Positions 22,517 to 57,013 of a stretch of DNA of 64,000 bases are shown here, piece by piece. Position 1 is the first letter of the stretch. Every line of letters begins with the position of its first letter. Below the pieces are notes generated by a model. That model searched no databases and was not told the origin of the DNA. It was given only the letters and a program-made list of their open reading frames with translations. The position numbers were made by a program, and so were the translations under genes. This DNA is from Candidatus Rifleibacteriota bacterium (GTDB taxonomy: Bacteria; Muiribacteriota; Ozemobacteria; Ozemobacterales; Ozemobacteraceae), in contig JAFPZP010000066.1 of the NCBI GenBank assembly GCA_017417215.1, positions 82,814 to 146,813 on the forward strand, in the 5' to 3' direction.

Positions 22517-25500
22517 TTACTTCAGAACAGCGAGTTTAAGTGTTGCTTTTATCTTCTTGCCTGTTTCTGGGTTAATAGCTTCAAGTTTAGCTATGTAAAC
22601 ACCATTGGCAACTTTCTTGCCTTTCTTGTTTCTCAAATCCCATCTAACTTCATAGTTCCCGTCATTCCTGTCTAATACATCACCTTCATCGAAATCAGCA
22701 ACTTTATGACCGGCAACATCGTATATTTTTATTCTGATGTTGCAGTTAATGCCAGTACTGTTGGTTCTGATTCTTATGGTCATGTTGTTTTTAGCGGGGT
22801 TCGGATACTGGATAATCTGTTTGAATTCAAAAGGCAATACAAGAGCAAAACGCATACTTCCAGATGTGGCTAAGTTGCCTGTTTTGTCTTTTGCTGAAAT
22901 AACCAGATCATGATTTCCGTTAATGAGTTCAGAGAGTGATTTGAACTTGAAATTACCATCATTATCTAAGGTTATACCTTGAATTTTGCTGTCTATTTTT
23001 GCTTCAAGGCTATTGGTATCAATGCCAGAACCAAAGTCTTTTATTGATCCTCTAAACTCAGGTCTAGCAGTTTCAAAAGCTTTGGTTAAGTCTACTGATT
23101 CGTCTAACTTGATGGTTGGAGCAACAGAGTCTCTCATTATCGCAAATACCTGACTAGAATTGATTCTAGCTTTGATTTCTTTGTCAGCAGTTATATTAGA
23201 GGATATGTATTTCCAAGAACCATTCTTTTGGTAGAATAATCCTAATCCTGTAGTTTGACTGGCTGATTCAGGAATCTTCATAGAAGCAACAATTCCTTTG
23301 TTAACTTTTGATGAATTAACAGCGGCTTCGTAAGCATCTGTAATAGGAGTTAATTCAGAATTAGTGGCTTCTTCTTCACTTGTTGCAACAGAAGCTCTTA
23401 AACCTCTCATGGCGATATATTCGTTTTGCAAAGAGGTTCTGATTGTTCCTGTAGCATAATCTTCCTTAATAACACTTCGTTTAAGTATTTTAACAGTTGC
23501 ATCTTCTTTTAGACTATCTTTGTCGAATGAAAGACTGAACTGTTTATCATCAGAAGTAAGTCTTTGGTTAGAGTTAACTTTTACGTTTGCTATAACGAAG
23601 CTTCCGGTTTCACTGCCTTTATTGCCGTTTAAGTCTTCTCCTTCGACTTTCAATGTTCCAGACTGACCATTGGAAGCTTTAAGTGAAGCGGCAGACATAA
23701 ATGCAAGAGGATTAGTTGCATTTTTCTGCATTGTAAGTTTTATCGGGGAAGCAGAGCCGTGAGTTATTGTTAGAGTTGGGACTTTAATCAATTCTTCGTT
23801 GCTTATAGCGATTATGATTATGTCGTTTTCGTTTGCTGGATTAGAGAAAGCAGATATAACAAATGTTGGCGGAGTAACATCGCGACCCTTGAAGCCAAAG
23901 CCACTTATAGAACTTTCGCAAGAATCGTTTCCTAATTCGTCTTTGACTCCAGGAGCTTTAATTCTGTAATCAGCATTTTCTATGAAAGTTCCTGATGCGA
24001 CAAGTAATACTGAGGTTCCATCAGATTGTAGAATTGCTGTAGTGATTGGAATAGTATTTCCAACACTGTCCTGAATTATATAAGATGAAGTTGCTTCACC
24101 TGTTGTTTTATCTAAGGGCTGGTCGAAAACAACCATAATTTCGCCTTGACTATTTACTTTGTCAAAGCTTGTTCCTACGATTGCAGGACCTTTTATATCT
24201 GCGTAGAATACTGCAGAACTTGCTGTAGTGCTTAGAGTAGAACCATAAATATTAGTCAGGCTGTCATTTACTGTTAGAGTGTATGAAGCTCCATGAGTCA
24301 TACCTGTAGCAATAAAGCTAATAGCTCGTTCATCTTCTATCTGAATGTTACTAATAGTTAAAGGAGGAACGCAGCTTATAGGTGTTGCTCCTAATGATGC
24401 TGGTTCTATTCCATGGTTGAACCACAACTTAATAGTGTTGGAACCAGTCTGAACTGCTGGACTCATTACCTGGAAGGGTGATGTTATAGCAGTTGTGCTT
24501 GTAGCTGTTTCTGATGAGTTACCGCAGATATCAGAAACTCGGAAAGTGTAAACACCGTCAGAAACAGTAGCACCGCTGTCGTTCTTGGCGTTCCAGGAAG
24601 CTTCAAGGGTTCCACCGTTATCAACAATGTTGAGTCTGTTAATTCTTACGTTACCAGCGTTGTAGACGTCTATGTAATAAGCGCCAGTAGCTGTTAGAGG
24701 TTCTTCAGTTTCCAATGAAATTACTAATGGTTTATCTTCACTTGGTGAACAGTAACTGCCGATGACAGAACCATTAATCTTAAGAGTATAAGTGCCTATT
24801 TCAGGATTCTTTGTGTCTATAACCAATTTATAGAGGTCTTCTGTGTCTGAGGCAGCTAAGTTACCTGCCTGATCTGTAAGACCTATGTCATAGACTCCAT
24901 CGGGCATTATATCATCTGGATTACCGGTGTCTCTGCTGTATTTTGCTCTGAAAGGAGCTTTCCAACCATTACTACTAAGAGGAGTCAGAGCATAGGTATC
25001 TGTAGATACTTTGCTTCTAATCCTAAGTCTTGGATTTGTATCAATTAAGTTTTTGAAGGTTACTTCAAAGTTTGTATGCCTATATGGATTCATATAGACA
25101 GTTTCGCTGTCTGGGAAATCTATTCCACTATTGAATGAAATGCCTGTGTAAGTTGGTTCTTCACTGTCAACACTCCATTCATAGTTATAGAATGATAAGT
25201 CACCGTTCGTATCAGCTATTCTTATAATAAATGTGGCTGATGTAGCTACGATAGGTTCTGTTACTGCATCCCAGGTAAATGTTGCCATTAAATCACCATC
25301 TAAGGCTAATGGGTAAGAAGCTACCATTATTTCTTCTGTTAGCTGATTTACTGTAACTTTTTTGAGGAAAGTTAAATAAACAGTAGCCGGGTCTCCATCA
25401 GGTGCTTCTGAAAGCTTTATGGTCATTGTTGCAGCATTGGGTTCAACGTTAAAGCTGAATACATCATCGTAATGGTATTCATTACCACTTTCTAAGGTAT

Positions 25501-34531: not shown

Positions 34532-34587
34532 CTCTTCTCCTTGAATAAAGCCAATTAGGAGAGAACTGGCTTTGTTCATATTTTTCT

Positions 34588-34616
34588 AATATATTGTTTC
34601 TTGCATAACATGTTAA
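34588..34616 (-). promoter_or_regulatory. sigma70-like promoter candidate for giant gene 1 (TTAACA-17-TATATT on minus strand)
   Basis: The -35 reverse complement is at 34611-34616 and the -10 reverse complement at 34588-34593. This would give a roughly 50-nt leader before the AAGGAG/ATG at 34531. Confidence 0.35.
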
Positions 34617-34681
34617 TTTATTCTTTAAAAAAGTACAAGCCCTTTTTAGATTTTTGTTAAGAAGTTTTCGTTTCAAAAAAT

Positions 34682-34709
34682 TTGACAATGGTATCAGATT
34701 TGCTAGAAT
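34682..34709 (+). promoter_or_regulatory. sigma70-like promoter candidate for the central operon (TTGACA-16-TAGAAT)
   Basis: TTGACA at 34682-34687 and TAGAAT at 34704-34709. The ATG at 34721 is only about 11 nt past the -10, so the leader would be very short. Confidence 0.4.
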
Positions 34710-34720
34710 TATTTTAATTT

Positions 34721-35446
34721 ATGTACAGAAATAGCATATTAAAATATATCTTTTTAATAGTAATTATGTTGTTGTGCAGAGCATCAACAGCTTCTGCATG
34801 CAGTCTTGCCTTACATGATTGGCAGTTGAAATTTTTTTATAAAATTCCTATAAATGCTCCTTTTATTCCATTGTCTGAAATCGCTGTTATTCAAAAACAG
34901 TTTAATAGAGCAGTAACAGATAGATTGTTCTGGGCTGTAAAACCTGGTGTTTTAACCCCATTCAATGATTTTATTATTTCTTTTATTGATGGTTGGGTCT
35001 CAAAAGTAAAATGGATAATAGTTCCCAACAATAAGTCTGTTATTAAACTAGCTAGAAGCTTTTCTAATGATGAAAATAAGCCTTTAATAGTTGGTTCTGA
35101 TAAAAATTATCTTAAAATAGCTGTTTTTTTAGATGCAAATTCAAATAATAATTGTTGTCAGATTGTTTTGGCTCAAGATAGCCGCATAAGATGCATTTTC
35201 CAAGACCCCAATAAGCCCTGGGCTCAAGAATATAGTATGGAGAGCTGGTTCTCTTTGATATTTTACAGACTTCCTATTCCGGGTTATATTTTGTCATTTT
35301 CTACTTATCCTATAGATGGCAATAGAGTTGCATTATATGAAGATCATCCTTTGGTTGAAACTCTATTGAGCAAAAAAATGCTCATGCGTAGACCAGATTT
35401 AGTTATCGACCCTTATTCTTTTGATTTTCCGGATTTACCAGAATGA
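34721..35446 (+). CDS. secreted protein of unknown function (first gene of central operon)
   Basis: 241 aa with signal peptide MYRNSILKYIFLIVIMLLCRASTASA. An ATGA 4-nt overlap joins it to the next gene. Confidence 0.6.
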   Translation: MYRNSILKYIFLIVIMLLCRASTASACSLALHDWQLKFFYKIPINAPFIPLSEIAVIQKQFNRAVTDRLFWAVKPGVLTPFNDFIISFIDGWVSKVKWIIVPNNKSVIKLARSFSNDENKPLIVGSDKNYLKIAVFLDANSNNNCCQIVLAQDSRIRCIFQDPNKPWAQEYSMESWFSLIFYRLPIPGYILSFSTYPIDGNRVALYEDHPLVETLLSKKMLMRRPDLVIDPYSFDFPDLPE

Positions 35447-38399: not shown

Positions 38400-38400
38400 T

Positions 38401-38925: not shown

Positions 38926-38940
38926 AATAGGATATTGTTT

Positions 38941-43000: not shown

Positions 43001-45143
43001 CAGCACAAATTCAAAAGATCCAAATTATAACTATCTTGCTGATCAGATGCTTACTCCAGGTTCCGGTTATTATCGTAATACAGCTAAGGTAAAATTCATA
43101 AATAATCTTGGAGACCTTTATTGGACAGATAAGAAGATTTATGTTTCAGCCAAGCTTATTTATAAAGTTCCAAATGGCAGTGGCTATAAAGAAATTTCTT
43201 TGCCATTAAAACAGGCTCAAGATAATAGTTCTTCTATAGGTAGTGACTATGAATTTGAATATACAGTAAAAGATGAAAGCCAATTATGGCAACCTGGTGG
43301 TAATATCCCTGTTTATTATACTACTGCAAGTAATTTGCCTCCTACTGACCCAATGGATGCAAGAATTCGAATCACTATGAGAAGATCATATATGTATACA
43401 TTGTGGTCTTTGTCTCCAGATGGTCAGCCCAGGTATCCAGCCCCAGTACCTGGTGAATTTAAAATGGTAGGTGAAGCTACTGTTCGTATTATGGATACAA
43501 ATAAACCAAAAGTAGATTGGGAAAAGACTGTTCCAAACAATCTCTTTGCTTTAACAGGCGGAGCATTAAAATCTGGAGTCGGTCCAACAGGCAGAGTTAA
43601 TCCTGATAACGTAAGCTTTACTGTTACTGATAATAATCCTTGGGAAGCTGTAGAAACAGAAGAAGGCTTGTCAATAGAACAACATATTAGAAATATCAAC
43701 ACCAACTATGGTCATGCTTATTGTCAATCCTACTGTAGTAAGAATTCTTATCTCAAAAAACTATTTGATGATATGAATCTTCCTAATACAACAGGCACAA
43801 AGGAAGACATCAGAACTGCAAAAGCTAAGAAACAAAAGACTTCGCATTTGAATTATAAGCCCTTGTTCTCAAGACAGGCTAGAGATATAAGAATTGGTTT
43901 TGAAACCGTAAGTCGTGATAAAGTAAGTGGCAAGGTAACATTAGACAAGGCAGATAATATGTCTGCAGCAGCTGGAAGACAGTTCTCTAGTGACAATGAC
44001 AGTGATTATGCTGTTCACTATCGTGCAGGTAAAAATCACAATGCAAAATACCAGAAGTCTTTATCTTTGGGTGAAATGAGTTATTCTAGAACTGTTGGTG
44101 CTACTACTGTTTATGATTCTACTTTGGCATATAGTATACCGGTTAATAATATCAAGATTGGTACTACTAATGATGATTCAAGCCAGAATAAGGTTCCTGA
44201 TGGTTATGCAAATAATACTCCAGGTTATAGAGTTGGAGACAAAATCAGACCTTATAAGTTCTTTGTTAGCTTAACAGACTCTTCTGGTAACTATACAGGT
44301 GAAAAAGAACTTAACGTTGTTCTGAATGTTAAGGACGATATTCCACCTATTGGTTATGGCTCAGTTCATGATGCTAAGAATGATCTTGTTTCATATTTCC
44401 CATATGAAGTAGATTCTGATGTGGCTACAGATCCAGCAAAGGCTCCATCTTATAGAGTTAAAGGTGAAGACTATTATTTCTCTCAGAATCTTAATAGTGC
44501 ATTCTTAAGAGGAAACTCTTGGGCTTCAACTGATTCAACTGGATTGGTTAGATATAATACTATAGCTGGTCCTTATAAGGCTATGCTTCCAGTATCTGAT
44601 GATATTTCTACTGGAGAATCTGTGAAAGATAATGATGCATATATTAATCTGGTTAAAGGAAGAATTCCACCGTTAGCAGTTGAAGATAACGTTGAATGCC
44701 GTTTCAATGCCTATGTTAACGATAACTGTGGTAATGCAACCGCAACATTAACTCTTAAATACTTTGATACTGACGGACGTAGTGGTGCTCAGACTGTATT
44801 AACTAGAAGTATTAGAACCACAAATGGTTGGATTTCAGCAGCAAATGTAGATGGTTCTACTAAGCTGAATATCTCTTCTTCAACAGTAGAATTGAATACA
44901 TTGTTCAGAGGTAATTCTGGCCAATTCCCAATGGCTATTCCTATAACCATTGTATCTGAAGACAATGCCAGAGATTGGGACTATTACCTCGGTGGTGCTG
45001 AAGATGGTAATGGCGACTGGTCTTGGGGAACTGTTCATTTTGGTAAGGACACACCAAATAAGAGAACATTTAAGACCTCATTACCAGTATTTGGTCACGA
45101 ACTTGACATTAGAACACTTGATAAGACAATTCAGAATAGATAA
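40083..45143 (+). CDS. 1686-aa secreted protein of unknown function, in the PilY1-like position after the pilin-like genes
   Basis: The signal peptide is MRKTSSFCLGLLGLVALSLLCPQQAKA. The protein is rich in W/Y/N/G and shows no obvious internal repeats, unlike the neighbouring giants. An AGGAG RBS precedes it and a strong terminator follows. Confidence 0.7.
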   Translation: MRKTSSFCLGLLGLVALSLLCPQQAKALDSQYLRNGECYLLIGEGASTLRGVYRLNNPAANPAKYYNNNRVIPGGSINNTLGFNVDLNRKIYTFTEQVESTWQVSSAPLYRQVLDGGVTADQADYGYHSYIHYDHRSWNKGDIYRTGPSGRNIHKDGGGTWSGFKSAGPGTEVSGDYTSTLPSMTGAASLGKISGKKWYQIPNASWYSNWKTGSADPMGDYGKKSNGKYGYLYNGFNTFYYVFGDKVQEKNHNYKLWTWNPSNAELDTPSYTKNTGDTVAVTKEEKISRNVYAGCLDGCGGASGSGSSQPLPMLNDIAFQPPLKDSSSRTYFYSRTKGGTNGKVTKNNSAYNPGSGNPLIGLKDSTDTFWLCISLRNVSTDYVYCLGTTVIKDWYKQAFGSAPSNMNITAVTVSNQWDQQGGIVYAYDKANKKIYKFERKETSGTPISKERFLALDLNSIMNEIDALNNSELDDIKADGFGSLYFAMSHPSKNVDSYNPAQHFKPSDCIHVHKTGHDNTKKETTFLMIFKQDYGKKVFQRNYLTGDITKVGSKDFASRIYNVTCKIKDAGWNVIQNYPSGCNFARLNAELASWSATVAGYTYSSATNSWPSSYYQRGRGACTHYSELNYNDPGQAKLAVINVPTPPKVISLGNKKSYLDIVGPYLDVFAIPDKVNRSTNQGDGLLNTSNLSTEQLYFYMVENYPLDDGAQDPTAQPNWDNDGRMGGFITSVQDPAPYNPSTHPSGVKYEWRTWMVLDLYGNCTCRLIQKNDVNNGYPYHSVYSSVPGKFIITCRATYNWYDYDALTFGSTVDDLSSVLHTNEVALPVAVGGISTQWASDRLTQIKNSFKYKGPNTGNKEILFMNYPVDQKGNSINVDYSPIVSDANGGKYLALEPISIGEVGEAPEEPTVKFPITRCDNIPGVASDSYMNTDSFWSPVPDDDKVFGIAAGEVYNWRIDKNAQAYMFKDISKFNSTNSKDPNYNYLADQMLTPGSGYYRNTAKVKFINNLGDLYWTDKKIYVSAKLIYKVPNGSGYKEISLPLKQAQDNSSSIGSDYEFEYTVKDESQLWQPGGNIPVYYTTASNLPPTDPMDARIRITMRRSYMYTLWSLSPDGQPRYPAPVPGEFKMVGEATVRIMDTNKPKVDWEKTVPNNLFALTGGALKSGVGPTGRVNPDNVSFTVTDNNPWEAVETEEGLSIEQHIRNINTNYGHAYCQSYCSKNSYLKKLFDDMNLPNTTGTKEDIRTAKAKKQKTSHLNYKPLFSRQARDIRIGFETVSRDKVSGKVTLDKADNMSAAAGRQFSSDNDSDYAVHYRAGKNHNAKYQKSLSLGEMSYSRTVGATTVYDSTLAYSIPVNNIKIGTTNDDSSQNKVPDGYANNTPGYRVGDKIRPYKFFVSLTDSSGNYTGEKELNVVLNVKDDIPPIGYGSVHDAKNDLVSYFPYEVDSDVATDPAKAPSYRVKGEDYYFSQNLNSAFLRGNSWASTDSTGLVRYNTIAGPYKAMLPVSDDISTGESVKDNDAYINLVKGRIPPLAVEDNVECRFNAYVNDNCGNATATLTLKYFDTDGRSGAQTVLTRSIRTTNGWISAANVDGSTKLNISSSTVELNTLFRGNSGQFPMAIPITIVSEDNARDWDYYLGGAEDGNGDWSWGTVHFGKDTPNKRTFKTSLPVFGHELDIRTLDKTIQNR

Positions 45144-45263: not shown

Positions 45264-46058
45264 ATGAAAAAAATTAACATGATAGTAATTTATAAAGTGG
45301 TATTTTCGTTTATGCTTGCTACCGCTATTATGTTAATTGGTTGTGGTGGTTCTGGTGGTGGAGAAGGTCGACAAACTTTACCAGGAGAAAACCCAACTGG
45401 TCCAATAATTATTCCAGGAACAAATACTGGTACTTATACACAAACTCAAACTGGGACAGGCACAGGCACTGGCACTGGTAGCGGAACAGGAACTGGAACC
45501 TCAATAGAATATCTAACTCCAGCTGATTTGTTAAAAAGAGGTTGGGAGATAATGAAAGAGGGGAATTATGGTGGAAGCATGACTTATTTTGATCATGTTA
45601 TATCTAATTCCAATTCTACTCCAGAACAGCGTCAGCAGGCTTATAACGGTCGTGGTTGGGCAAGAGCCAAATATTACAATACTATTGAAGGGTTAGATGA
45701 TTTTAAAGCTTCTTATCAAATGGGTGAGCTTAATACTAATGCCTATAAAGAATCTATATTAGGTTATGCTCTAGCTTTAATTCAAGCTACAGGAGATTCA
45801 AATTTTGATAGAGCAATACAACTATTGGCAGATGAACTTCAATTAGCTAATCCAACTTTTGTATTAGGTATAGAACATACTTGTATCGGTGTTAGTTCAC
45901 CAGAAGCTCATGCTATGCTTGCCTATGCATATTATTGGAGAAATCAGCCAGAATTAGCTAAAGCTCAGATAAATCAAGCGCGTGTAGATGATTCATCAAC
46001 TACAGGAACTGTTTATCAGATTTTTACAACTTTAACAGCCGCTGGATTATTCAATTAG
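45264..46058 (+). CDS. TPR-like lipoprotein with (Thr-Gly)n linker (paralog A)
   Basis: 264 aa with lipobox MLIGC, a linker GGSGGGEG...TGTGTGTGTGSGTGTGT, then a helical repeat domain. It shares AYNGRGWARAKY and AHAMLAYAYYW with the 56315 product. Confidence 0.65.
   Translation: MKKINMIVIYKVVFSFMLATAIMLIGCGGSGGGEGRQTLPGENPTGPIIIPGTNTGTYTQTQTGTGTGTGTGSGTGTGTSIEYLTPADLLKRGWEIMKEGNYGGSMTYFDHVISNSNSTPEQRQQAYNGRGWARAKYYNTIEGLDDFKASYQMGELNTNAYKESILGYALALIQATGDSNFDRAIQLLADELQLANPTFVLGIEHTCIGVSSPEAHAMLAYAYYWRNQPELAKAQINQARVDDSSTTGTVYQIFTTLTAAGLFN
45450..45500 (+). repeat. coding (ACN-GGN)n microrepeat encoding TGTGTGTGTGSGTGTGT
   Basis: Direct reading: actgggacaggcacaggcactggcactggtagcggaacaggaactggaacc. 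Confidence 0.8.
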
Positions 46059-46068
46059 AAAAATTAGA

Positions 46069-46120: not shown

Positions 46121-46236
46121 AGAATAATTTAATGTTATAGTAGATTAGGCTGTGCACTAAAAATATACTGTGCACGCTTTTGTCTTGTAAAAAAATAGTT
46201 GAAACCAAGGGTGTTTCACAGGAGAAATATATAAAT

Positions 46237-49200
46237 ATGGCAAACAATAAGGTAACAAACAAGTCTTTCTATTGGTGTTTTAGCATTTTTGTGCTAATTC
46301 TTTTTATGACAACGGCCTCTACCGGGCAGGCTGCAATAAAGAATCCTGCGGTAGCTTTAACTTCTGATGCTAATGGCGACGGAATTGCAGGTATTGGAGA
46401 TACAATTACTTTAACTTGTAGATCCACTACTAACGATGCAACTATATATGTTACTTCATTACCTTCGTTAGGATTCACACAGTTACCATTGGTTGATATC
46501 GGCAACGGCTTGTATTCTGCCATATATACAGTTAGTGCCGGTAATGTTAATAGTCAGATTCAATTTATTTTTGATGATAACTCAGGAAGCACCCAGTCTG
46601 TTACCACTGGGTTTGTTCTGAATAGTAAACGCCCTTCAGCTAACGGCAGACCTTCTACAAATCGTGGTACTTCTTCTGATGGAACTTTTAAGAAAAACGA
46701 TACTTTAACTATTACTTTTAAGCTCAATAATTCAAATAACGGCGAAACAATGTATGCTGATTTAAGTGCATTGGGATTGGGCTATGTAGATATGGGTGCC
46801 AATGCAAACACTTTCAGTTGTAGTGTTGTTATGCCGGCAAATAAAGAGGGCACCAACCTCAGTTTCCCAGTAACTGCAATGAATGAAGCTGGTAACTCTG
46901 TTACCTGGACTTCAGCAGCCATAAACTACGATACTATTAATCCTGTAGTTCAGTCTGCTACAGCAGTAAACCAGACATCTAACAAACAGTATGTTACTGT
47001 TGGAGATACTATTAAAATACAGGCCGTAATCAGCAAATGGGATAATGATATTGTTACTGCTTCAAACTCTCTGCTTTTCCCAGGCGGTCCCGTTACAATG
47101 GAACATGTTTCCGGTGATACTATTGGGGCTATGGCTGTTTATGAATACTCTCATCCGGTTACAGAAGAAAATATATCTAATATTTCAACCTGTTTTGACA
47201 TAACAGTAATGGATGATGCAGAAAACACTGTAAAGAAATCCACAAACTATATAAGACTGGATACTCTTCCACCAGAATTTAAAACCTTATCTATTAAAAT
47301 TACTGACCCTGTAAAAGGTCTTTTGTCTAATGTAGCTATAATTGATGATAACCTTCAAATATTCGGTGATATGTCATCTTTGATGACAGATGTCACCTTA
47401 TTGGTTGATTTATCTGCAATAGGTGGCGTTTCTAATCAGATTATTCCTTTCGCTGATGGTTCTACTGCTCCTTCTGTTGCTACAACAAGTTTTTGTTTGA
47501 ATTATAATGTTGGTCAATATACTTCAGAAGATAATATTCCAAGAGCTTTTACTGTTACAGCTAAAGATATTGCGGGTAATATTATTACTCAGGTTACAAT
47601 GCCTGTAATCTATGTTGATAACTTACCTCCTACTATAAGTGCAGCTCAATTTATAAATGTAACATCAGCTAATCAGCCTGTAAAATTAGGCGATCAAATA
47701 GCTATTACTGCTTCTGTTGGTAATCCAGACAATGGAATTGTTTATGCAGATATCAGTAAGTTAGGCGGTTCTGATAAGGCTGAATTAAGTTTGTTCTCTG
47801 GGGTCAGTTACAGATTAGATCATGTCGTCAGTGAATCTATTAATCCTATGTTACCAGGCGGTATTGATCAATCATTAAGTTTTGTTGTTTTTGCTCAAGA
47901 TAATGCTGGTAATATTGTAGATACTACAACAGGAAATCTGATGGTTGATACAGAACCACCATTGATTTTGAATGCGACATATACTGTCAATCCAGCTCTT
48001 TCTGCTACACATAAATTTGTAAAAGCAGGCGATAGAATAACTTTTAAAGTTCAGTTAGCTAGTTCTACATCAACTGTTCATGATGGTGAAACTGTTACTA
48101 TGGATTTATCTGCTTTTGAAGGGCAGAGTGATAATACTGAACTTAATTATGGTGGTGGTTGGTATACTTATTCTTTTGATATTCCTGCTGGTAATTTGAA
48201 TTTTGACAATAACTTTACTGCCGTCGCCAAAGATAATGCTGGCAATACTGTTACAAGATCTATTCAAGTTAAAATAGACAATCAGAAGCCAGTTGTAGGT
48301 CCAATAGGTATTAATTTCCTGACAGATACTGCTAAAACTGGTGTAATTAATATAGGTGATAGAATTGAAATAATTGTTCCTGTTGATGATGCTGATGAAG
48401 GTTACTGCTATATGGATTTATCCATTATTGGTAGTAGCAGTAACTGCATTATTCCTTATGATCAGTTTGACACAGCTTTGAACAGATATTACCTTGTTAT
48501 AGATTGTAAAGATGCAGCCATAGAAAATCCTAGCTATGTATTTACTGCAAATGTATATGATAAAGCAGGAAATAAAATGAGTGGCATATCGTCACCATTT
48601 GTAGTTGACTGCCGCCGACCTGTCTGCAATGATTTCAGCGTAACTCATATAAAGAAAAAAGGAAAATCAGGCGTAGTAAACGTTGGTGATCAGATTAAAT
48701 TTACTGTTGAAGTTGACCCCTCAACTTTTGATAATGCTTCTGTAACAGTAAATCTTAAAAAGTTGGGTGGTTCATCTGCTCAAAAACTGGAAGATATTGG
48801 CGATAACATCTGGACATACACCTATACTGTTGAAAAGGGTGATACCAACGGCGAAGATGTTTTATTTAAATGTAAAATAACTGATGATGCAGGAAACTTT
48901 GTAGAAACTAATGCTCCAAAGAGTTTCTTCGTAGATAATTGCCCGGTAGAAATTGACAGTATTACTTTTGCTCAGACTACAGATACCAACGGCAACGATA
49001 TAGTTGACTTAGACGGTTCCTTTGTTGTTACTCCTGTTTACGCAACAGATTCAGTTACATTAACAGTAAATCTTTCTGCAAATGCAAGCGTTACTGTTGA
49101 TTTGACTAAATTCGGATATAACAATACTGCTTATTCTATTCCTGTTGTAACCTCTATTAGCGGTTATAAAGCCGAAGAAGTTATTGAGCCTAAGAAAGGT

Positions 49201-52200
49201 TCTACCAATAATGAAGCTGTTACCTTGACTGTTACTGCAACAGATGAAAATGGTAACCAGACAATAATGGATACTCCTAACAGTGTAAAGGTAGATAATA
49301 AACCGCCTGAAATATTGGTAGCTCCAGTAACTTTCACATACGATACCGGAAGACAGGGCGAAGCAAATAAGAATGACGTTATAAAGATTGAAGCAAATGT
49401 TACTGGCAATGATGGGTTGGCTCCATTGCTTGATTTCACAGAGCTTTATTCGGCAAATAATATGACTCCTCCAGGTGGAACAATAATGGAAGTTACACCT
49501 GGTAGTAATAAATATTCTGCCACATTCACTGTTCCTGAAGGTCTCTTATCAAAGAATAGACTGGCTATAATTGCTAAGGATTCTTCTGGAAATATGACAG
49601 TTGCTCAAACTGAAATTATAAGATTTATTTCGAAAATTCCTGAAGTAAATCAGACTTCAGTAGCAATAATTGATGATAAAAATTCAAATGGAATCTTGAA
49701 TCCTGGTGATACAGTAAGAATTAGCTGTAACCTGAGAGGTGCATTTGAAGATAATAATACTCCTCCAACAAAAGTTGTTGTAGATATAGGTGGAATAACA
49801 GATTCAGACAGTAATGCTTTTTATACTGGTGATGTTGAAAATCCTGAAAAACGTTGTTGGGTAGAATTAACATGGGATGGAGATTCTGGAGACCCATATC
49901 TGTATACAGGTGAATTTGTCGCATCTCCAACTGTTAAACTTAATCGTGGAACCGATGCAGAAAGTATTGATTTCATAATCAGGGTTCTTCACCCGGATTC
50001 TACAACAGAAACCATGTATACTACTACAGTTACTGGTGAGTTCCCTGTTGATACCAAAATGCCTCTTGTTGTAAATGGTTCTACAAAACTGACTATTGTA
50101 GATGAAAACGGCGATAATACAGCTTCATATTCTGCAAATATTGGCGATTTTATGGAAGTTAAGACAGAAATTAAATTCTTCGATGATTTTGCTTCTGCAA
50201 CTGCCGTATTATATATGCCTAACAATGGTGAAATATTAGGTTATGTTCCATTAGTAAGAAATACTGGTACAGATGTTTGGATTGGTAACTTTGAAGTTGC
50301 TACAGGTACTAGAAAAGCAGGAGAAGTTGTTGGTGAAAATGAATGGCGTATAATAAATGAAGAAGCTGTAAAAATTAAGATTTTTGCAACTGATGACGCA
50401 GACAATACCGCTTCTTCTAGTTTGACTACACCTTCACCTGCAATTAAGATGGATAATAAGCCACCGCAAATCAGTACTTCACATACTGAAACTTATATTG
50501 AATGTGTAAATACTAATGCTGACTCCTGGACTGGCGTCAATGTATGGAATGGCTTAGCTACAGATAGTATACATGTTAAGGTAACATTAACAGAAGGTAT
50601 TAATGCCACTATAGGTAAGGGTTATGCCTATATTGATTTATCACCTATTAATGGTACTTCAACCTATTTGCTTAAACCTAGTACCGGAGCTAACTGCACT
50701 ATTTTTGAAACTGTTGCAGGAATTACTTACGGAGATAGATACGATCACTATATAAGCAATTCCGAAGTAGATTTAGGCAGTTATAGTTTCAAAATATGGG
50801 TTGTTGACGGTGCAGGTAATAAGAACTTTTTTGAAGATACTGTCAATCTTCTCGGCATAGATACCAAACGACCTGTTATTGAAAGTATGGCTTATGATGG
50901 AGCTATGCTTACAATTAAATTCTCTGAACCAGTTCAGCCTGGAACAATAGATGTAGATAATATAAGAATGGGTAGAGCCAATGTTTCAGGAGTTCAGAGT
51001 CTTCATAAAGACGTAGACGTTATTCAGGGCACAGCAGTTAAGTTTTCTTCAACTCCTGTATCTGCTGACCCCGAAGACTATGAAAAAGTTTCTCCTCTTA
51101 CAACTAACTCACAATATGTCTACATAATGCTTGGTAAAACAGTAAAGAGCAAAATCGCTGATTGGGGTTCAACTAAGCTGTTCCTTTCTATTGCTAGTAT
51201 AGATGACGATCCAGGCCAAATTACTGATACAACAGATATAAATTATAAAGAAACTGGTTTGGGTGTAGATGTTGCTAATAACTGGATAACTCCTGTTTTA
51301 AGAGGTTCTCCAATGGAAATAACCATCAGCAATGAACAGTATTGTGAAAGACCTAACCTGATTGGTGGTCGTTATAATGCTGCTTCTACAAATATTGATG
51401 GTGATTATTTACATTTGACTTTTGATAGGTCTATGGATAAAACTACTTTAACAGAAGATTCAATTAGTAAGTTGGCAATCTGGTATAATAATTCTTCTCA
51501 GTCAGAACTTTGGAATGTAAGATACAGAATGCAGCCCGGTAGTGATACTTATGATCTTGGAGATACATATAATACTTCTAGTTGTAATGCATTCTCTGTA
51601 GGTATCAAGCTTTCTCAGGAAGCTAAAGACTGGATTGCTTTAACTTATGGCAACAGAGCTTCTGAAATCAGATTGCAGGTTAATGATTCAGAATATGACC
51701 CACCAGCTTTTATTAGAGATATAAACGGTAATAGAATCAATGCTATATTACCAAGTTATTCAATAGCTGCAAGTTTAACTCCATTGGTAAGTCCTTTCTC
51801 TATGACCTCTGGTGTGAAACTTGATTTAACTGGAACAGTTCCAATGCTCACTATTAACTTCAATAATCGTAGAGCTAGATTGTTCCAGGATACATACTCT
51901 GCAACCAGCCTTCAGGTTGGTAAAACCATGCCTGCTGATCTGTCAAGAATATACATTTGTTCTGATGAAAGAGTCAGCACAGGCAATAATATCTGTTTAG
52001 GTACTTCTGGCACAATTCCCGCAATGGTTAATTGGAATTCTGGTGCTACAAGTTATACCTCTTTGAATGATTTTGCTTCATCTACAGTTCGTATTCCACT
52101 TACCGATACAGCTTTAAATACTATATTGACTTGGGGAACAAGCCAATTCTACTTGAGATGTGAAAACGGAGCATTTAGAGACCTTTGGGGCAATTTAAGT

Positions 52201-55200
52201 GAACCATTTGCAGATTCTAATAATAATGGTGCTTTAATTGAAACAGTAATGCCAAGCGGTAGTGAATTCGCAGAACCTAAGATTTATTCTGTAGCTTTAA
52301 CTCCAGTAGTAGAAGGCTTAGCTGGTAGAACTTTATTTAAAGGTCATACAGCAAACACCTTTATGTATGAAGTAAGTTTTGAAACAGCTACACTTTCCAG
52401 CAATATCAGAGTTCCTATTGCCCAGAATGTAACTCCAACCTTGAAGTTATATACTCAAAATGGTGACAGTTTAATAGATTCTGGAACCTTTGTTGAATGG
52501 GGAGAACATAATCAGGGTGGTGTAAGTAGAACCTATGTAAGATTTGCTAACTCAGGCTTATCTGAAGCTGGAACCTTCCAAAGAGAACCTGTATATGTTA
52601 AGGTCGAAGGCTTTACTGATATATTCAGAGCAACTCAAAGCTTTGAAGATACTGCTTCTTTCTCATACGATCTTACTAAAAAGATGGAAGGAACAGCTTA
52701 TCCAACAGGATTTAATCAGGTTGCAAGTTATCCAATGGAATTCGATAACTGTGCTCCAACTGTTTTGACTGCAACTTCTACTGTAGCTAACGTGGCTCCT
52801 GTAGACTATATTGTTGGAGTAACATCTAAGAATAACTTGAAAGTTGTTGTAACCTTCAGCGAAAACATGTTCCAAAGCACTAATACATCTGCAATGCCTT
52901 CTTTGAAACTTGTAACTTCAGCTGGAGCAACAGTAATGCCATTTACATTCAGCAGATGGCAAAGCCCAACTGAAGCTGAATATCTCAATGCTGCAGACTT
53001 TGATAGCAATACTACTCAGGGCAAAGCTTATTTCATGATAAGCGGCGGTTACGACGAAGCTGGAAATGCTTTGGCAGATGTAACCTTAGCAGATTATCTT
53101 GATATTAAGTCTAAAGGCCCGACTATTAATAGTATTATTGTTAAGACTTTGCAATATACAACAGCTAATTCAGCAGATGATTATCAGACAAATGTAGCTT
53201 ACAGCCCCTCTGTAAGTTCAAATTACTATGAAGATACTGTTGCTCATCCTTATGGTATGGGTGAAGGTCTTGGTGTTGCTACTATTACTGTAACCTTTGA
53301 TTCTGCTCCAGAAGGAAATACTGGAGAAATAAGAATCTATACTATAGATGGAGCAACTTTGGTAAGAAGACTTGATGCTGTTCAAGCTTCATCTGCTACT
53401 GAATGGTATGCAGAATGGGATGGTAGAAGAGATGATGGAACTTTAATTACCTCTAATTATCAGATTACTTATTTAATTAAGTTCTTTGATGCTGCAGGCA
53501 ATGAAGGAAGCCGTACTGGTCAGATTATTTACGATAATTCTTCACCAAAAGTTATCGAATGGCAATTCCCGAATCTAAAAGTTGTTAATAATGTTGCTTA
53601 TTTCAGTCCTAGCGCTCAATCTTCTGCCAGAATTAACGTAATTACTGGTGATTTAGGCCAAACCATGAAAATGCGTTTGTCTAGAAAGAATCCAGATCCA
53701 GCTCAGCATGATATTATAAATACCTATGTAATGAGTTCTTATGGAAATTCTGGCTATACAATTGCATTTGATGGTAATGGTTCTGTTAGTGCAACTGAAG
53801 CATTGGTCGGAAGTTGGGCAGTTGACCTTGTTGATACTGCAGGTAATATTGGTGTCGGTTTAAATGCATCCAGCAAACCGGTTGCTACATTGTATATAGA
53901 TAGAACTGCTCCAAATATTACTAACATTACTCTTCAGAAGGTTACTGCAGATTTGACTCCTGTTGGTGATCCTGGAATAGACAGATTCAATGCAAGACTT
54001 AACAATCTTAAGATTATGATTGTTGACAGTACTGTTGCTGATGACCCATTAGATGATGGCACTGGCATAGTCAAGATTATGTCTGGTAATACTGTTCTTA
54101 GAGAAATCTTTACTGTAAAAACCGGAAGTGACTTATATGCCGTATGGGATGGCAATGACGACAATGGTGCTCCTGTTCCTGATGGAACTTACACCATTAA
54201 AGTTTCTGACCTTGCTGGCAACGAAGGCACTCTGACCAAAGAAGTAACATTGATTCGTTCAGTATTCTCATTAACAGGTGTTGAACAGGTCGGACTTGAT
54301 TCTATTAAAATGGTATTCAGCCAGAAAGTAGAACCTACAACAATCGGTGCTGCTTATACTATCAGTCCAATTAATCCTCCTGGTTTGCAGATTTCTAATG
54401 CTACATTGAGCTCAAGTGATGCAACCATAGTTATGGCTTCTATTACACCTGCGTTGACTGTTAATCAGCATAATATTGAATATACAGTAACTGTTCCGGC
54501 AGATACTGTTAAGAGTATTGATGGTGATTCAATCACAGCTGGTAATAATACTGCTAAGTTTACTGCAGATACAAAAGGACCTAGTATAGTTGCTATAACT
54601 TATGATGGTTTGAATTCTCAGAAACAGTTCAATGTAGTCTTTGATGAACAGGTTGAATCTGGTAGTGCAATAACTGTTGCAAATTACAAACTGGCAATTG
54701 GTGGAACAGATGTTCCGATAACTTCTGTTGTATTAAGAGCTGATAATAAATCTGTTACTATTACTTCTTCAAGTGATATTGAAGAAGGCACAAATTATAC
54801 TTTAACAGTAAAAGATGTTAAAGATTTGTCTGGAAATAAGAGTGACACTAATATTACTTTTGAAGGTCGTGATATTACTCCTCCTGTTTTAATTATTACC
54901 GCTTTCAGCACTCCAGCAAATGTAAGAGATATAGTTATCGCTGTTAAAGCAAATGAAGATATTTCTGGACTTCCAACTGCAGTAATCAGCCAGACTGGAA
55001 CTGTTGCTAACAGTATTCAGCTTGTATCAACTGGTAATAATAGAATATTTACAGGTGGTTATCACCTTGATTCTAATTATGCTGGTGTTGCAACAATTAA
55101 AGTTACTGCTACAGACTTATCAAATAACGTTGGAACAGGCAATTACAGCTTTACAACTGCTTATGTAAGTTCTTCTGCACGAGCTTCTATAACATCAGCA

Positions 55201-56253
55201 GATAAGGTTGCAACTGTTGTATTTGAAAAGGGTAGCTTGAAATCTAATTCAACTGTAATGTTTATGACTGAACAGTTGGTTAAGATTGAAAATGCTTCTG
55301 ATACTGCTGTTAGAGCATCAATTATTCCTGCTGTTTCTGAAGGAATGAATACAGAAACAAGAGCTTCGTTGAGAGCTACTATAGACATCAATGCTCAGAA
55401 CGATAAAGTAGTTCAGGAACTTACACCCTTTGGTGACGGCTATAAGCTTATTGTTCCAACCAATAATCTTACTAAGTCTGTTAATATCAGCATGAAACTT
55501 AGTGATGAACAATTAGCTGCAACAAATGCTGGTCTTTACGAATATACCAATAACACTTGGAAATTGGTTAAGACTTCTGTTGCTAGCGGAACAGCCAGAT
55601 TCTCTACAAAAGATGGCAGTCTGTTTGCTGTTATGAAAGATACTATGGCTCCAAGAGCATCAATAACCAATGACTTAACGAAGGTAATTAAGACATCTAA
55701 GCCTGTATTTACTTGGAATATTACCGAATATGCATCAGGAATTGATAAGAATAATATAAAAGCCGTCTTGGATGGAAAAGAATATGATGTAATGCTCAGC
55801 AAAGATGGTACTGTTGCTAAGTTTACACCGCCTAGTCTTAATACTGGTGAACACGAATTAGGTATTAATGTGATTGACCTAGCTGGTAATAGGGCTTCAA
55901 TTGATTCTGGACGCTTTACAGCACTTATTTCTTTGGTAATTGAAGATGTATCAAGCTACCCGAATCCTGCAAAAAATTATTCAAAAATCAGATTTAAGGT
56001 TAGCGGAAATCAAATAAATGCCGATGAAGTAAGTGTAAAAATTTATGACGTTGCCGGTCACCTTGTCGCAGATGCTAGTAACATTGATATGAGAGGTGGA
56101 AAGGCCAATATCTATGAAGCTCGTTGGGATTTAAGAAACAAGAAAGGCAAGAAAGTAGCAAATGGCGCCTATATTGCTAGAATTGAAGTAAGAGATCCTA
56201 TCAATTGGGGCAAAAAAGCTAAGTATACGCTGAAAATAGCTGTTCTTAAATAG
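46237..56253 (+). CDS. giant secreted Ig-like-repeat surface protein with FlgD-Ig/T9SS-CTD-like C-terminal domain (giant 2)
   Basis: I prefer the ATG at 46237, with AGGAGA about 11 nt upstream, giving about 3338 aa; the track starts at TTG 46180. It has an N-terminal hydrophobic signal (FYWCFSIFVLILFMTTASTGQAA) and many D-x-AGN-terminated roughly 100-aa domains. It is colinear with giant 1. The C-terminus reads YPNPAKNYSKIRFK...VKIYDVAGHLVA...RWDLRNKKGKKVANGAYIARIE...LKIAVLK. Confidence 0.85.
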   Translation: MANNKVTNKSFYWCFSIFVLILFMTTASTGQAAIKNPAVALTSDANGDGIAGIGDTITLTCRSTTNDATIYVTSLPSLGFTQLPLVDIGNGLYSAIYTVSAGNVNSQIQFIFDDNSGSTQSVTTGFVLNSKRPSANGRPSTNRGTSSDGTFKKNDTLTITFKLNNSNNGETMYADLSALGLGYVDMGANANTFSCSVVMPANKEGTNLSFPVTAMNEAGNSVTWTSAAINYDTINPVVQSATAVNQTSNKQYVTVGDTIKIQAVISKWDNDIVTASNSLLFPGGPVTMEHVSGDTIGAMAVYEYSHPVTEENISNISTCFDITVMDDAENTVKKSTNYIRLDTLPPEFKTLSIKITDPVKGLLSNVAIIDDNLQIFGDMSSLMTDVTLLVDLSAIGGVSNQIIPFADGSTAPSVATTSFCLNYNVGQYTSEDNIPRAFTVTAKDIAGNIITQVTMPVIYVDNLPPTISAAQFINVTSANQPVKLGDQIAITASVGNPDNGIVYADISKLGGSDKAELSLFSGVSYRLDHVVSESINPMLPGGIDQSLSFVVFAQDNAGNIVDTTTGNLMVDTEPPLILNATYTVNPALSATHKFVKAGDRITFKVQLASSTSTVHDGETVTMDLSAFEGQSDNTELNYGGGWYTYSFDIPAGNLNFDNNFTAVAKDNAGNTVTRSIQVKIDNQKPVVGPIGINFLTDTAKTGVINIGDRIEIIVPVDDADEGYCYMDLSIIGSSSNCIIPYDQFDTALNRYYLVIDCKDAAIENPSYVFTANVYDKAGNKMSGISSPFVVDCRRPVCNDFSVTHIKKKGKSGVVNVGDQIKFTVEVDPSTFDNASVTVNLKKLGGSSAQKLEDIGDNIWTYTYTVEKGDTNGEDVLFKCKITDDAGNFVETNAPKSFFVDNCPVEIDSITFAQTTDTNGNDIVDLDGSFVVTPVYATDSVTLTVNLSANASVTVDLTKFGYNNTAYSIPVVTSISGYKAEEVIEPKKGSTNNEAVTLTVTATDENGNQTIMDTPNSVKVDNKPPEILVAPVTFTYDTGRQGEANKNDVIKIEANVTGNDGLAPLLDFTELYSANNMTPPGGTIMEVTPGSNKYSATFTVPEGLLSKNRLAIIAKDSSGNMTVAQTEIIRFISKIPEVNQTSVAIIDDKNSNGILNPGDTVRISCNLRGAFEDNNTPPTKVVVDIGGITDSDSNAFYTGDVENPEKRCWVELTWDGDSGDPYLYTGEFVASPTVKLNRGTDAESIDFIIRVLHPDSTTETMYTTTVTGEFPVDTKMPLVVNGSTKLTIVDENGDNTASYSANIGDFMEVKTEIKFFDDFASATAVLYMPNNGEILGYVPLVRNTGTDVWIGNFEVATGTRKAGEVVGENEWRIINEEAVKIKIFATDDADNTASSSLTTPSPAIKMDNKPPQISTSHTETYIECVNTNADSWTGVNVWNGLATDSIHVKVTLTEGINATIGKGYAYIDLSPINGTSTYLLKPSTGANCTIFETVAGITYGDRYDHYISNSEVDLGSYSFKIWVVDGAGNKNFFEDTVNLLGIDTKRPVIESMAYDGAMLTIKFSEPVQPGTIDVDNIRMGRANVSGVQSLHKDVDVIQGTAVKFSSTPVSADPEDYEKVSPLTTNSQYVYIMLGKTVKSKIADWGSTKLFLSIASIDDDPGQITDTTDINYKETGLGVDVANNWITPVLRGSPMEITISNEQYCERPNLIGGRYNAASTNIDGDYLHLTFDRSMDKTTLTEDSISKLAIWYNNSSQSELWNVRYRMQPGSDTYDLGDTYNTSSCNAFSVGIKLSQEAKDWIALTYGNRASEIRLQVNDSEYDPPAFIRDINGNRINAILPSYSIAASLTPLVSPFSMTSGVKLDLTGTVPMLTINFNNRRARLFQDTYSATSLQVGKTMPADLSRIYICSDERVSTGNNICLGTSGTIPAMVNWNSGATSYTSLNDFASSTVRIPLTDTALNTILTWGTSQFYLRCENGAFRDLWGNLSEPFADSNNNGALIETVMPSGSEFAEPKIYSVALTPVVEGLAGRTLFKGHTANTFMYEVSFETATLSSNIRVPIAQNVTPTLKLYTQNGDSLIDSGTFVEWGEHNQGGVSRTYVRFANSGLSEAGTFQREPVYVKVEGFTDIFRATQSFEDTASFSYDLTKKMEGTAYPTGFNQVASYPMEFDNCAPTVLTATSTVANVAPVDYIVGVTSKNNLKVVVTFSENMFQSTNTSAMPSLKLVTSAGATVMPFTFSRWQSPTEAEYLNAADFDSNTTQGKAYFMISGGYDEAGNALADVTLADYLDIKSKGPTINSIIVKTLQYTTANSADDYQTNVAYSPSVSSNYYEDTVAHPYGMGEGLGVATITVTFDSAPEGNTGEIRIYTIDGATLVRRLDAVQASSATEWYAEWDGRRDDGTLITSNYQITYLIKFFDAAGNEGSRTGQIIYDNSSPKVIEWQFPNLKVVNNVAYFSPSAQSSARINVITGDLGQTMKMRLSRKNPDPAQHDIINTYVMSSYGNSGYTIAFDGNGSVSATEALVGSWAVDLVDTAGNIGVGLNASSKPVATLYIDRTAPNITNITLQKVTADLTPVGDPGIDRFNARLNNLKIMIVDSTVADDPLDDGTGIVKIMSGNTVLREIFTVKTGSDLYAVWDGNDDNGAPVPDGTYTIKVSDLAGNEGTLTKEVTLIRSVFSLTGVEQVGLDSIKMVFSQKVEPTTIGAAYTISPINPPGLQISNATLSSSDATIVMASITPALTVNQHNIEYTVTVPADTVKSIDGDSITAGNNTAKFTADTKGPSIVAITYDGLNSQKQFNVVFDEQVESGSAITVANYKLAIGGTDVPITSVVLRADNKSVTITSSSDIEEGTNYTLTVKDVKDLSGNKSDTNITFEGRDITPPVLIITAFSTPANVRDIVIAVKANEDISGLPTAVISQTGTVANSIQLVSTGNNRIFTGGYHLDSNYAGVATIKVTATDLSNNVGTGNYSFTTAYVSSSARASITSADKVATVVFEKGSLKSNSTVMFMTEQLVKIENASDTAVRASIIPAVSEGMNTETRASLRATIDINAQNDKVVQELTPFGDGYKLIVPTNNLTKSVNISMKLSDEQLAATNAGLYEYTNNTWKLVKTSVASGTARFSTKDGSLFAVMKDTMAPRASITNDLTKVIKTSKPVFTWNITEYASGIDKNNIKAVLDGKEYDVMLSKDGTVAKFTPPSLNTGEHELGINVIDLAGNRASIDSGRFTALISLVIEDVSSYPNPAKNYSKIRFKVSGNQINADEVSVKIYDVAGHLVADASNIDMRGGKANIYEARWDLRNKKGKKVANGAYIARIEVRDPINWGKKAKYTLKIAVLK

Positions 56254-56314
56254 TCTTTCGGAGGTCTTCTCCGAATTGACTAAGTAAGTAAGGTGTTAAT
56301 TTGGAGAAAGACTG

Positions 56315-57013
56315 ATGAATAAAAAGCTAATCGCATTATTTGCAATAATGGCTGTTATCTTGACACTAGCCAATGGCTGTGGTTCAAGCAGTGGAACTGG
56401 TCGTTATTCTGTTCCATCAGATATTATTAGTGGCGGCGGTGGTTCTGGACACAGCAGCGGTGGCTCAGGTGGCGGCGGAATTGTTGAAACAGACGTTGAT
56501 TCTCTAATCGCCAGTGGTTGGGAAGATTTCAAATACGGTGCTTATAGCAGTGCTATTAGTAAATTCAATGAAGCTTTATTAAATTCAGGCATATCTGATA
56601 CTCAAAAAGCTAGTGCTTATAATGGACTTGGATGGGCTTTAACTAAATCATCAGGTTCAGAATCTGGTTACTCAGCTTTTACTCAGGCTTCCGGATTAAA
56701 TGATGAAGCTAAAATTGGTTTAGCAGCGGCTTTAATGCAAAGAGGAACCAAAACTGCTTGTCAGCAGGCAGCTTCTTTGTTGGAAAGCCTTGGTTTAAAA
56801 GAAACTTCAACTGTTTTTACAGCTATTCACCCAATTGGAGTTACAAATGCTGGTGCTCATGCTATGCTTGCATGGTGTTACTTCATAATTGGTAACGAAG
56901 ATGGGGCAAGAGTGCAGATTACATTTGCTAGAGCAGCAGATGGAACTGCAGATAGCGCCGTAAATCAAATATATAACTCTCTAATTGCTATGGGGTTAAC
57001 CTTTAATGATTAA
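56315..57013 (+). CDS. TPR-like lipoprotein with Gly/Ser linker (paralog B)
   Basis: 232 aa with lipobox LANGC, a linker GGGGSGHSSGGSGGGG, then AYNGLGWALTKS and AHAMLAWCYFI, which match paralog A. Confidence 0.65.
   Translation: MNKKLIALFAIMAVILTLANGCGSSSGTGRYSVPSDIISGGGGSGHSSGGSGGGGIVETDVDSLIASGWEDFKYGAYSSAISKFNEALLNSGISDTQKASAYNGLGWALTKSSGSESGYSAFTQASGLNDEAKIGLAAALMQRGTKTACQQAASLLESLGLKETSTVFTAIHPIGVTNAGAHAMLAWCYFIIGNEDGARVQITFARAADGTADSAVNQIYNSLIAMGLTFND

Follow-up and report, generated by a model that had tools for sequence, protein, structure and literature searches.

An eight-gene operon of Riflebacteria with prepilin-like genes, Skp/OmpH-like paralogs and a large secreted protein: a possible module for the tip or the priming of a type IV filament

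A 64,000-nucleotide stretch of contig JAFPZP010000066.1 (positions 82,814 to 146,813) from a Candidatus Rifleibacteriota bacterium of the gut or rumen, here called the window, contains a 10.4-kb operon of eight genes, A to H (34721-45143), which is specific to Riflebacteria. This operon is the conserved unit, and not the 34.5-kb span (22517-57013) that the original prediction had described as one cell-surface system, with two giant proteins on either side of the operon. We propose that the operon encodes a module resembling minor pilins with PilY1, which would prime a type IV filament or form its tip and would have Skp-like chaperones of its own, a reading to which we give a probability of about 0.5. 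A role of the pilus-tip type had already been suggested for the whole span and is the best reading of its central operon.

Organization of the operon

Gene positions were taken from the open reading frames (ORFs) of the window, and N-termini were read by eye in the translations. All 12 ORFs of the span were found where they had been predicted. The operon comprises the following features.

34721..35446, + strand: A, 241 aa, lipoprotein-like, first gene of the operon
35443..36102, + strand: B, 219 aa, shortest Skp/OmpH-like paralog
36099..37034, + strand: C, 311 aa, Skp/OmpH-like, with an extra C-terminal region
37024..37851, + strand: D, 275 aa, type IV prepilin-like, the largest, GspJ/PilW-sized
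37851..38399, + strand: E, 182 aa, type IV prepilin-like, small, GspI/PilV-sized
38401..38925, + strand: F, 174 aa, atypical pilin-like, without Glu5
38935..39906, + strand: G, 323 aa, Skp/OmpH-like, upstream neighbour of H
39937..40009, + strand: putative regulatory region before H (palindrome, sigma54-type motif)
40083..45143, + strand: H, 1686 aa, secreted, beta-propeller-like N-terminal region

Genes A to G are tightly packed, with overlaps or with gaps of at most 9 nt. The overlaps that had been noted between operon genes were found at A/B and B/C (4 nt each) and at D/E (1 nt); the E/F gap is 1 nt and the F/G gap 9 nt. G and H are separated by 176 nt, a gap that had not been mentioned. 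Each of the 12 products of the span carries a secretion-, lipoprotein- or prepilin-type N-terminus, in agreement with the first description. Sec-type signal peptides were seen in B, C, G, H and both giants, and lipobox-like Cys residues in A (ASAC) and in the two lipoproteins downstream of the operon, I (LIGC) and J (ANGC). Prepilin motifs were present in D (KG↓FTVAE) and E (KA↓VTLVE). The N-terminus of F has a basic and then a hydrophobic stretch, and Glu5 is missing.

Conservation of the operon in Riflebacteria

Thirty-nine such loci were found when one genome per species was scanned. Their ORFs were labelled by the window proteins and by family profiles, and synteny was counted in 24 loci, those in which the flanks of H reached 6 kb or more upstream and 2.5 kb or more downstream. 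Riflebacterial metagenome-assembled genomes (MAGs) are the source of the loci. The closest one, in the rumen MAG RUG334, is 70% identical, and H identity among the loci goes down to 28%. All eight families A-H were present in 20/24 loci, and the A family in 21/24. Three gene orders were observed. Most loci have ABCDEFGH, five have ABC-GH-DEF (L023, L024, L025, L033 and L034), and three have DEFGH followed by inverted CBA (L032, L037 and L040). ABC, DEF and GH behave as intact blocks in nearly all loci, apart from L027 (order A-C-B), L047 (order E-F-D) and L006, where G follows a pair of H genes.

Several loci may occur in one genome, as in Reindeer_2_mag_167 and Rumen mag_344 with two or three each, and multi-copy modules within genomes are represented by L007/L009 and by L018/L027/L028. 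In L001 the module is multiplied in tandem (4335-25187), with the G-H pair and the D-E-F set each present twice and an additional H gene, which makes three. Two H genes are adjacent in each of L006 (4859-14986) and L007 (1-10457). A diverged subfamily, H' (27% identity, about 1,390 aa), was found in L047, where H' sits behind E-F-D plus two Skp-like genes. About 9 kb downstream of this H' module lie type I-F CRISPR-Cas genes, for Cas1 and a Cas2-Cas3 fusion (22855-24185).

In a collection of 5.8 billion proteins, H has 86 homologs, and all named ones come from Candidatus Riflebacteria, Rifleibacteriota or Ozemobacteraceae MAGs or from obviously mislabelled bins. A profile of H residues 27-830 matched only 125 proteins among 1.84 billion representatives, the named ones again being riflebacterial. 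The named homologs of A are likewise all riflebacterial. An exact look-up of H in the assembly collection gave no match.

Giant-like and tetratricopeptide repeat (TPR)-lipoprotein genes adjoin the operon in only one of the 24 loci (L029). Because the giants and the TPR lipoproteins are adjacent in so few loci, the conserved system is the 10.4-kb operon, and since the operon occurs without nearby giants in most loci, it is kept without them. Giants 1 and 2 are lineage-specific neighbours, not core parts. Conserved gene order in relatives, which had been named as a check, was found for the operon, which is a real functional unit with strong synteny; the giants failed as obligatory parts of it.

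Skp/OmpH-like proteins B, C and G

C matched the Pfam family OmpH (PF03938) with 36.2 bits (cut-off 32.4; E 8.7e-9). In the C family, 17/24 members matched OmpH, and in the G family 12/25 (E up to 0.01 in both; best E in the G family 1.3e-5). The window G itself scored 15.1 bits, and the window B had no OmpH match of its own, the B family being otherwise unscanned. Comparison of the families with hhalign gave a probability of 99.8% for C and G (E 1e-30), 98.5% for B and G (E 3.6e-15) and 98% for B and C. By these profile-profile comparisons B, C and G are mutually paralogous, and the OmpH match places C, and via C also B and G, in a divergent subfamily of Skp/OmpH. The three Skp-like paralogs that had been recognized from the translations are upheld by the hhalign probabilities and by the score of C. 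Close homologs of G bear the Joint Genome Institute (JGI) label 'Skp family chaperone'. Searches of the PDB with the G and C profiles gave only coiled-coil noise and OmpH at E ~0.4, with a colinear match.

Like Skp/OmpH, the three proteins have a signal peptide and then, in the order of the OmpH profile, an N-terminal strand, a long helical hairpin and a strand that runs back. Canonical Skp is about 140-170 aa long and is encoded by one gene whose product forms a homotrimer, whereas B, C and G are 219-323 aa long and occur as three fixed paralogs per module. Their families have about 100-150 extra residues, with an extra conserved C-terminal region, and share an HPxM..(Y/F)D motif, which is N-terminal in B. 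G is almost always directly upstream of H and is duplicated along with H in L001.

The membership of B, C and G in the Skp/OmpH family could also fit a housekeeping envelope operon, in which the three proteins would be general chaperones of outer-membrane proteins and the pilin-like genes and H would merely be co-located. The position of the operon amid genes for PBP1A, AddAB-like proteins and ornithine carbamoyltransferase (OTCase) in many genomes would agree with this. We regard it as very improbable. The joint duplication of G with H, the multi-copy state of whole modules and the module of L047, which keeps its own Skp-like genes beside its own pilins and H', all speak against it, as do the family-specific motif and the extra residues.

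Prepilin-like proteins D and E and the atypical protein F

The motif G↓FT(L/V)xE was found in nearly all members of the D family, with T and E invariant. All members of this family (25/25) matched the Pfam family N_methyl (PF07963; best E 4e-8), and the window D scored 20.8 bits at a cut-off of 21.2. In the E family the motif (G/A)↓xTLxE is conserved in nearly all members, and 14/19 matched N_methyl. As judged from motifs and family matches, D and E are genuine type IV prepilin-like proteins and members of the pilin-like class, as had been claimed. D gave ComGF and GspJ matches far below the cut-off (GspJ 13.1 against 64.85 bits, NCBIfam), and E gave weak XpsI, GspI, ComGE and PilV matches, all below their cut-offs (GspI 17.7 against 44.35 bits). 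When the D family profile was compared with the PDB, the matches were confined to the alpha1 helix of solved pilins; the same kind of search with E and F gave no informative relatives.

The F family has a conserved RRGxA(L/V) sequence followed by a hydrophobic helix, and Glu5 is absent. This arrangement recalls subunits of the PilX/GspK type. No GspK match was found for F in NCBIfam. F is always found along with D and E, and it stands directly after E in all loci but one, the exception being L047 with its E-F-D order.

Downstream of the module in L028, further pilin-like ORFs of 699, 144 and 182 aa, whose N-termini are of the prepilin type, form a second cluster (18121-22025), and the gene before them has an N-terminus like that of flagellin.

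The large protein H and the lipoprotein A

H had no match in Pfam or NCBIfam. Fifteen members of its family were compared with Pfam and matched no family apart from one weak propeller match, and neither the single sequence nor the full-length family profile matched any PDB sequence. The AlphaFold2 (AF2) model of residues 1-1200 (predicted local distance difference test, pLDDT, 86) is mostly beta, with several long hairpins. Its sole confident Foldseek match was the six-bladed propeller of paraoxonase 4hhq (probability 1.0, 367 columns, TM-score 0.36 on the target); the query was a 1200-residue multi-domain model, for which global alignments are poor. Nothing credible was found in the viral library. 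Conservation of H is highest in residues 1-830 and rises again over the last ~90 residues.

Stand-alone paralogs of about 550 aa that match only the N-terminal propeller-like part of H were observed in L045 (10001-11641) and L046 (10001-11734). They are among the 125 proteins matched by the profile of residues 27-830, and in riflebacterial genomes their genes adjoin gyrB-gyrA-divIC-dnaX. Two ORFs of the window (7966-9624 and 9746-11482) were considered as further short paralogs of the H propeller and were rejected, with an hhalign probability below 1%.

A has a signal peptide followed by an invariant ACSLALHDW motif. It had no match in Pfam, NCBIfam or PDB sequences, including a comparison of its family profile with the PDB. 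The AF2 model (pLDDT 86) is an alpha/beta sandwich, for which Foldseek returned nothing significant (best E 0.025); weak resemblances to the lipoproteins CsgG and LptE had E values of 0.03-0.4. The invariant Cys had raised the idea of an N-terminal-nucleophile hydrolase. This was dropped, the model being a small alpha/beta sandwich with no hydrolase match.

A putative tip or priming module

Minor pilins and PilY1 prime the type IVa pilus (T4aP) and sit at its tip, and several sets per genome are possible (PMC7541494, PMC8833165). Like the T4aP module (FimU-PilV-PilW-PilX-PilY1; clusters 1-3 of Myxococcus xanthus; PMC7541494), the operon combines compact prepilin-type genes with a gene for a very large, secreted, mostly beta protein. 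It also lies apart from pilus machine genes, occurs in several divergent sets per genome and has one pilin-like member without the canonical Glu5. We propose a tip or priming complex because three pilin-type genes stand together with the gene of a large beta-rich secreted protein, away from machine genes and often in several sets per genome. The operon would resemble a minor-pilin/PilY1 module in its working and is not a member of that family.

In the proposed mechanism, prepilin peptidase would cleave D and E. Joined by the non-canonical F, the two would make up a small complex of minor pilins like GspI/J/K or PilV/W/X, and this would prime or cap a type IV filament (pilus or pseudopilus), presumably built by a machine encoded elsewhere. 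The complex would carry H at the tip as a binding head, in the role of PilY1, and H is the likely functional head of the module. In the periplasm B, C and G, possibly as a heterotrimer, would keep H or the pilins competent for assembly. G may be the H-specific partner, because it duplicates together with H. A would be an accessory membrane-anchored factor, and the giants with I and J would be separately secreted surface adhesins that stand beside the operon only in the gut/rumen lineage.

A periplasm is expected, and a Skp role plausible, from genes of the window together with the treatment of Riflebacteria as diderms (10.1101/2021.05.31.446380). The genes are an MlaD/ABC ATPase/MlaE operon (MlaDEF; 1359-4291, - strand) and a SIS+CBS (KdsD/KpsF-like) gene (11498-12463, + strand), both of which fit an outer membrane containing lipopolysaccharide.

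A helper tied to a minor-pilin set has a precedent in TfcP of M. xanthus, a periplasmic, non-canonical cytochrome c that stimulates calcium binding by PilY1 (PMC8833165). TfcP is likewise a dedicated periplasmic helper on which a big tip protein depends; the helpers of the operon differ in being three paralogs of the Skp/OmpH type. In the T4aP module, neither three Skp-like genes nor a lipoprotein gene is integral, as they are here. Among the papers listed by a literature search on minor pilins and PilY1, none mentioned Skp.

Several observations weigh against a tip or priming module. Genes for a pilus motor, platform, secretin, major pilin and prepilin peptidase are all missing from the window; the lack of motor, platform and secretin had been pointed out from the start. 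Neither a prepilin peptidase (PilD/GspO) nor PilB/C/M-Q or a major pilin was seen in the window or in the 10-kb flanks of the related loci. A scan of the 39 loci for the PilB/PilT-type Walker A motif found only ClpX. In L023, L024 and L042 a 416-aa protein with the sequence GPTGSGKT, encoded upstream of the operon, was a candidate PilB/PilT ATPase; it was rejected as ClpX because of its N-terminal CxxC zinc-finger sequence and a ClpP-like gene upstream. In the loci examined the module has three pilin-like genes and not four as in T4aP, and the window yielded no fourth prepilin motif. Neither D nor E has a globular part that matches a solved minor pilin in sequence. F is recognized by no pilin HMM (hidden Markov model), with 0/21 members matching Pfam, PilX_N and N_methyl included, and for this reason we infer its pilin nature with less certainty.

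The comparison of H with PilY1 was also unfavourable. No match to the PilY1/PilC family of Pfam (PF05567) was found for H at E up to 1 or for the 15 family members, and no PilY1 structure was among the top 50 Foldseek matches of H, a test weakened by the multi-domain query. The propeller of PilY1 is C-terminal, whereas the propeller-like part of H is N-terminal.

The lack of machine genes near the operon in any locus would also agree with a self-contained device for export or anchoring of H that needs no long pilus. In such a device the Skp-like trio would ferry H over the periplasm, A would act at the outer membrane, and D, E and F would form a short pseudopilus stub like that of the type II secretion system (T2SS), pushing H out or tethering it. 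The tip of the T2SS pseudopilus consists of GspI, GspJ and GspK, which are a small, a larger and a Glu5-less capping subunit. E, D and F repeat this pattern, with E small, D larger and F without Glu5, and the weak matches of E (GspI/XpsI) and D (GspJ) have the same direction. Three Skp-like genes per module are unusual in pilus clusters, and A weakly and non-significantly resembles the outer-membrane lipoproteins CsgG and LptE. We nevertheless consider the device doubtful. A pseudopilus also requires an ATPase, a platform and a peptidase, none of which was seen; no GspC-F, L or M genes lie near the operon, and the giant partner protein H is foreign to the T2SS tip. The GspI and GspJ matches fall far short of the cut-offs, F with its 174 aa is much smaller than GspK, and the fold matches of A are non-significant. 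The device differs from a tip or priming module chiefly in the length of the filament, which is beyond the reach of sequence data.

It is possible, if rather unlikely, that the eight genes are an autonomous envelope machine specific to Riflebacteria, which exports and presents H, a protein with a fold family not known from elsewhere, without a canonical motor of type IV pili or T2SS. With similar reserve, its parts may be a heterotrimeric Skp-like cage of B, C and G, the outer-membrane lipoprotein A, and a pilin stub of D, E and F. If true, such a machine would add a new derivative to the type IV filament superfamily and would count among the lineage-defining inventions of the phylum.

Putative regulatory elements

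The gap between G and H (39907-40082) contains a perfect 16-nt palindrome, GTAAAAATATTTTTAC, at 39937-39952, a sigma54-type -24/-12 motif (GG-N10-GC), GGTACAAAATATGCA, at 39995-40009, and a strong Shine-Dalgarno sequence. The palindrome and the sigma54-type motif are kept before H in L005 (9725-10005) and L006 (4735-4865). In its strict form, GG[CT]A[CT]N6TGC[AT], the motif occurred nine times across the loci in the 100 nt before a start of A, D or H, against ~0.43 expected at a simple uniform rate, which is not corrected for composition. The palindrome GTAAAA-N4-TTTTAC occurred eight times in all loci and the window together, seven of these before H or D. It reaches distant clades (L032, L037, L040 and L035), including the Rifleibacterium clade.

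The best sigma70-like site of the scanned region, the near-consensus TTGACA-16-TAGAAT with TG, was found at 34682-34709, before A. It is overlapped by a sigma54-like motif (34690-34704) that lies 31 nt upstream of A and recurs 27-28 nt before A in L006 (470) and L027 (4706). For H, the predicted promoter is at about 40021. A has no Shine-Dalgarno sequence, and its leader would be very short. Together these predicted sites suggest that the sub-operons are under shared control and that H is under separate control.

The neighbouring giants and lipoproteins

The remaining features of the span are as follows.

22517-34579, - strand: giant 1, 4020 aa, surface adhesin-like
34580..34720, no strand: divergent intergenic region between giant 1 and the operon
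45264..46058, + strand: I, 264 aa, lipoprotein, paralog of J
46180..56253, + strand: giant 2, 3357 aa, colinear paralog of giant 1
56315..57013, + strand: J, 232 aa, lipoprotein downstream of giant 2

Between giant 1 and A, which diverge, lie 141 nt if the longest ORF of giant 1 is taken and 189 nt if its translation starts at Met17; the second value accounts for the promoter region of 190 nt reported before. In BLASTP the C-terminal ~1200 aa of the giants were 29% identical (E 2e-113), and a second, N-terminal match had an E value of 6e-45. By this comparison the giants are colinear paralogs, as had been stated. Self-BLAST at E 1e-5 found no internal repeats in them. I and J are paralogs too (35% identity, E 8e-24); this part of their description as paralogous TPR-like lipoproteins stood, and the TPR part was weakened, all TPR matches being below the Pfam cut-offs. 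The lipobox of I (45264-46058) was observed to be directly followed by a long low-complexity linker of Thr-Gly and Ser-Gly (TGTGTGTGTGSGTGTGTS).

Giant 1 contains FlgD_ig (E 3.3e-15) and Big_13 domains, and giant 2 a FlgD_ig domain. The tails resembling FlgD and a type IX secretion system (T9SS) C-terminal domain had been listed among the components of the span. They were found, with a borderline T9SS character: Por_Secre_tail scored 27.2 bits in giant 1 and 27.1 bits in giant 2 (cut-off 27), and TIGR04183 scored 18.8 and 23.6 bits (cut-off 23). The FlgD_ig model matches the same domain type as the Por_Secre_tail region of the giants. The C-terminus of giant 1 matches the C-terminal region of PorU. 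Like the T9SS cargo adhesins of Bacteroidota (SprB-type), the giants are encoded by multi-kb genes, are Ig-rich and have a FlgD-Ig/Por_Secre_tail-like end. Unlike them, they score only at the cut-off and their host is outside Bacteroidota; no T9SS core genes (PorK/L/M/N, SprA, PorU/V) were seen in the window. T9SS has been described as confined to Bacteroidetes (PMC7906972, PMC11611037).

Giant 1 homologs and I homologs adjoin the operon only in L005 and L006, and giant 2 homologs in L006, L007 and L029. Apart from L029, giant, I or J genes adjoin the operon in the close gut/rumen relatives L005, L006 and L007. In the distant L029/L048, a giant-like gene of 1009-1037 aa and a J-like lipoprotein gene stand head-to-head with the operon, and the pairing of a giant with a following J-like lipoprotein recurs there.

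These relatives bear on the proposal that the whole span is one system, in which the operon would display or secrete both giants with the help of the TPR lipoproteins. The order giant 1-operon-I-giant 2 is kept in L005, L006 and L007, with H identity down to 55%. The head-to-head genes of L029/L048 occur beside an H that is only 31% identical, and giant 1 and the operon have a divergent promoter region in common. We nevertheless think a single system quite unlikely, since a giant or TPR lipoprotein is near the operon in so few of the 24 loci, and the comparison of relatives did not support the proposal. The giants have signal peptides of their own and C-terminal sorting-like domains. An AddA/AddB-like pair and an OTCase gene follow the operon in 8/24 loci, and in L003 and L004, whose neighbours are annotated, it comes after a PBP1A-type gene, and H is separated from AddA by an M42 peptidase gene. 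In the window, the OTCase gene and the AddA/AddB-like pair (12574-22484) are on the other side of the operon, beyond giant 1, which suggests that this lineage underwent a local rearrangement or insertion.

Elsewhere in the window, five ORFs (552, 578, 291, 433 and 252 aa; 7966-11482 and 57010-60122) have no Pfam family. Rfam and tRNA scans of the window were empty.

Significance

Neither the locus itself nor the pili, T9SS or T2SS of Riflebacteria were treated in any paper that we found. These bacteria are uncultured, and in the FESNov survey they had the highest per-genome novel-family density among named phyla, with 26 synapomorphic (lineage-defining) unknown families (PMC10849945). The operon probably accounts for several novel riflebacterial families and gives them a testable context.

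We know of no described case in which three fixed Skp-type paralogs and a lipoprotein are part of a module of pilins and a tip protein. If the operon does encode a tip or priming module, it would be the first minor-pilin/tip-protein module known to us with built-in chaperones of the Skp type, and H would represent a family of large pilus-tip proteins that is new and has no sequence relationship to PilY1. Such a module would bear on the diversification of type IV filament tips and on the periplasmic handling of very large beta-rich proteins. Together with the neighbouring giant adhesins, it is an obvious candidate for attachment to particles or cells in the gut and rumen.

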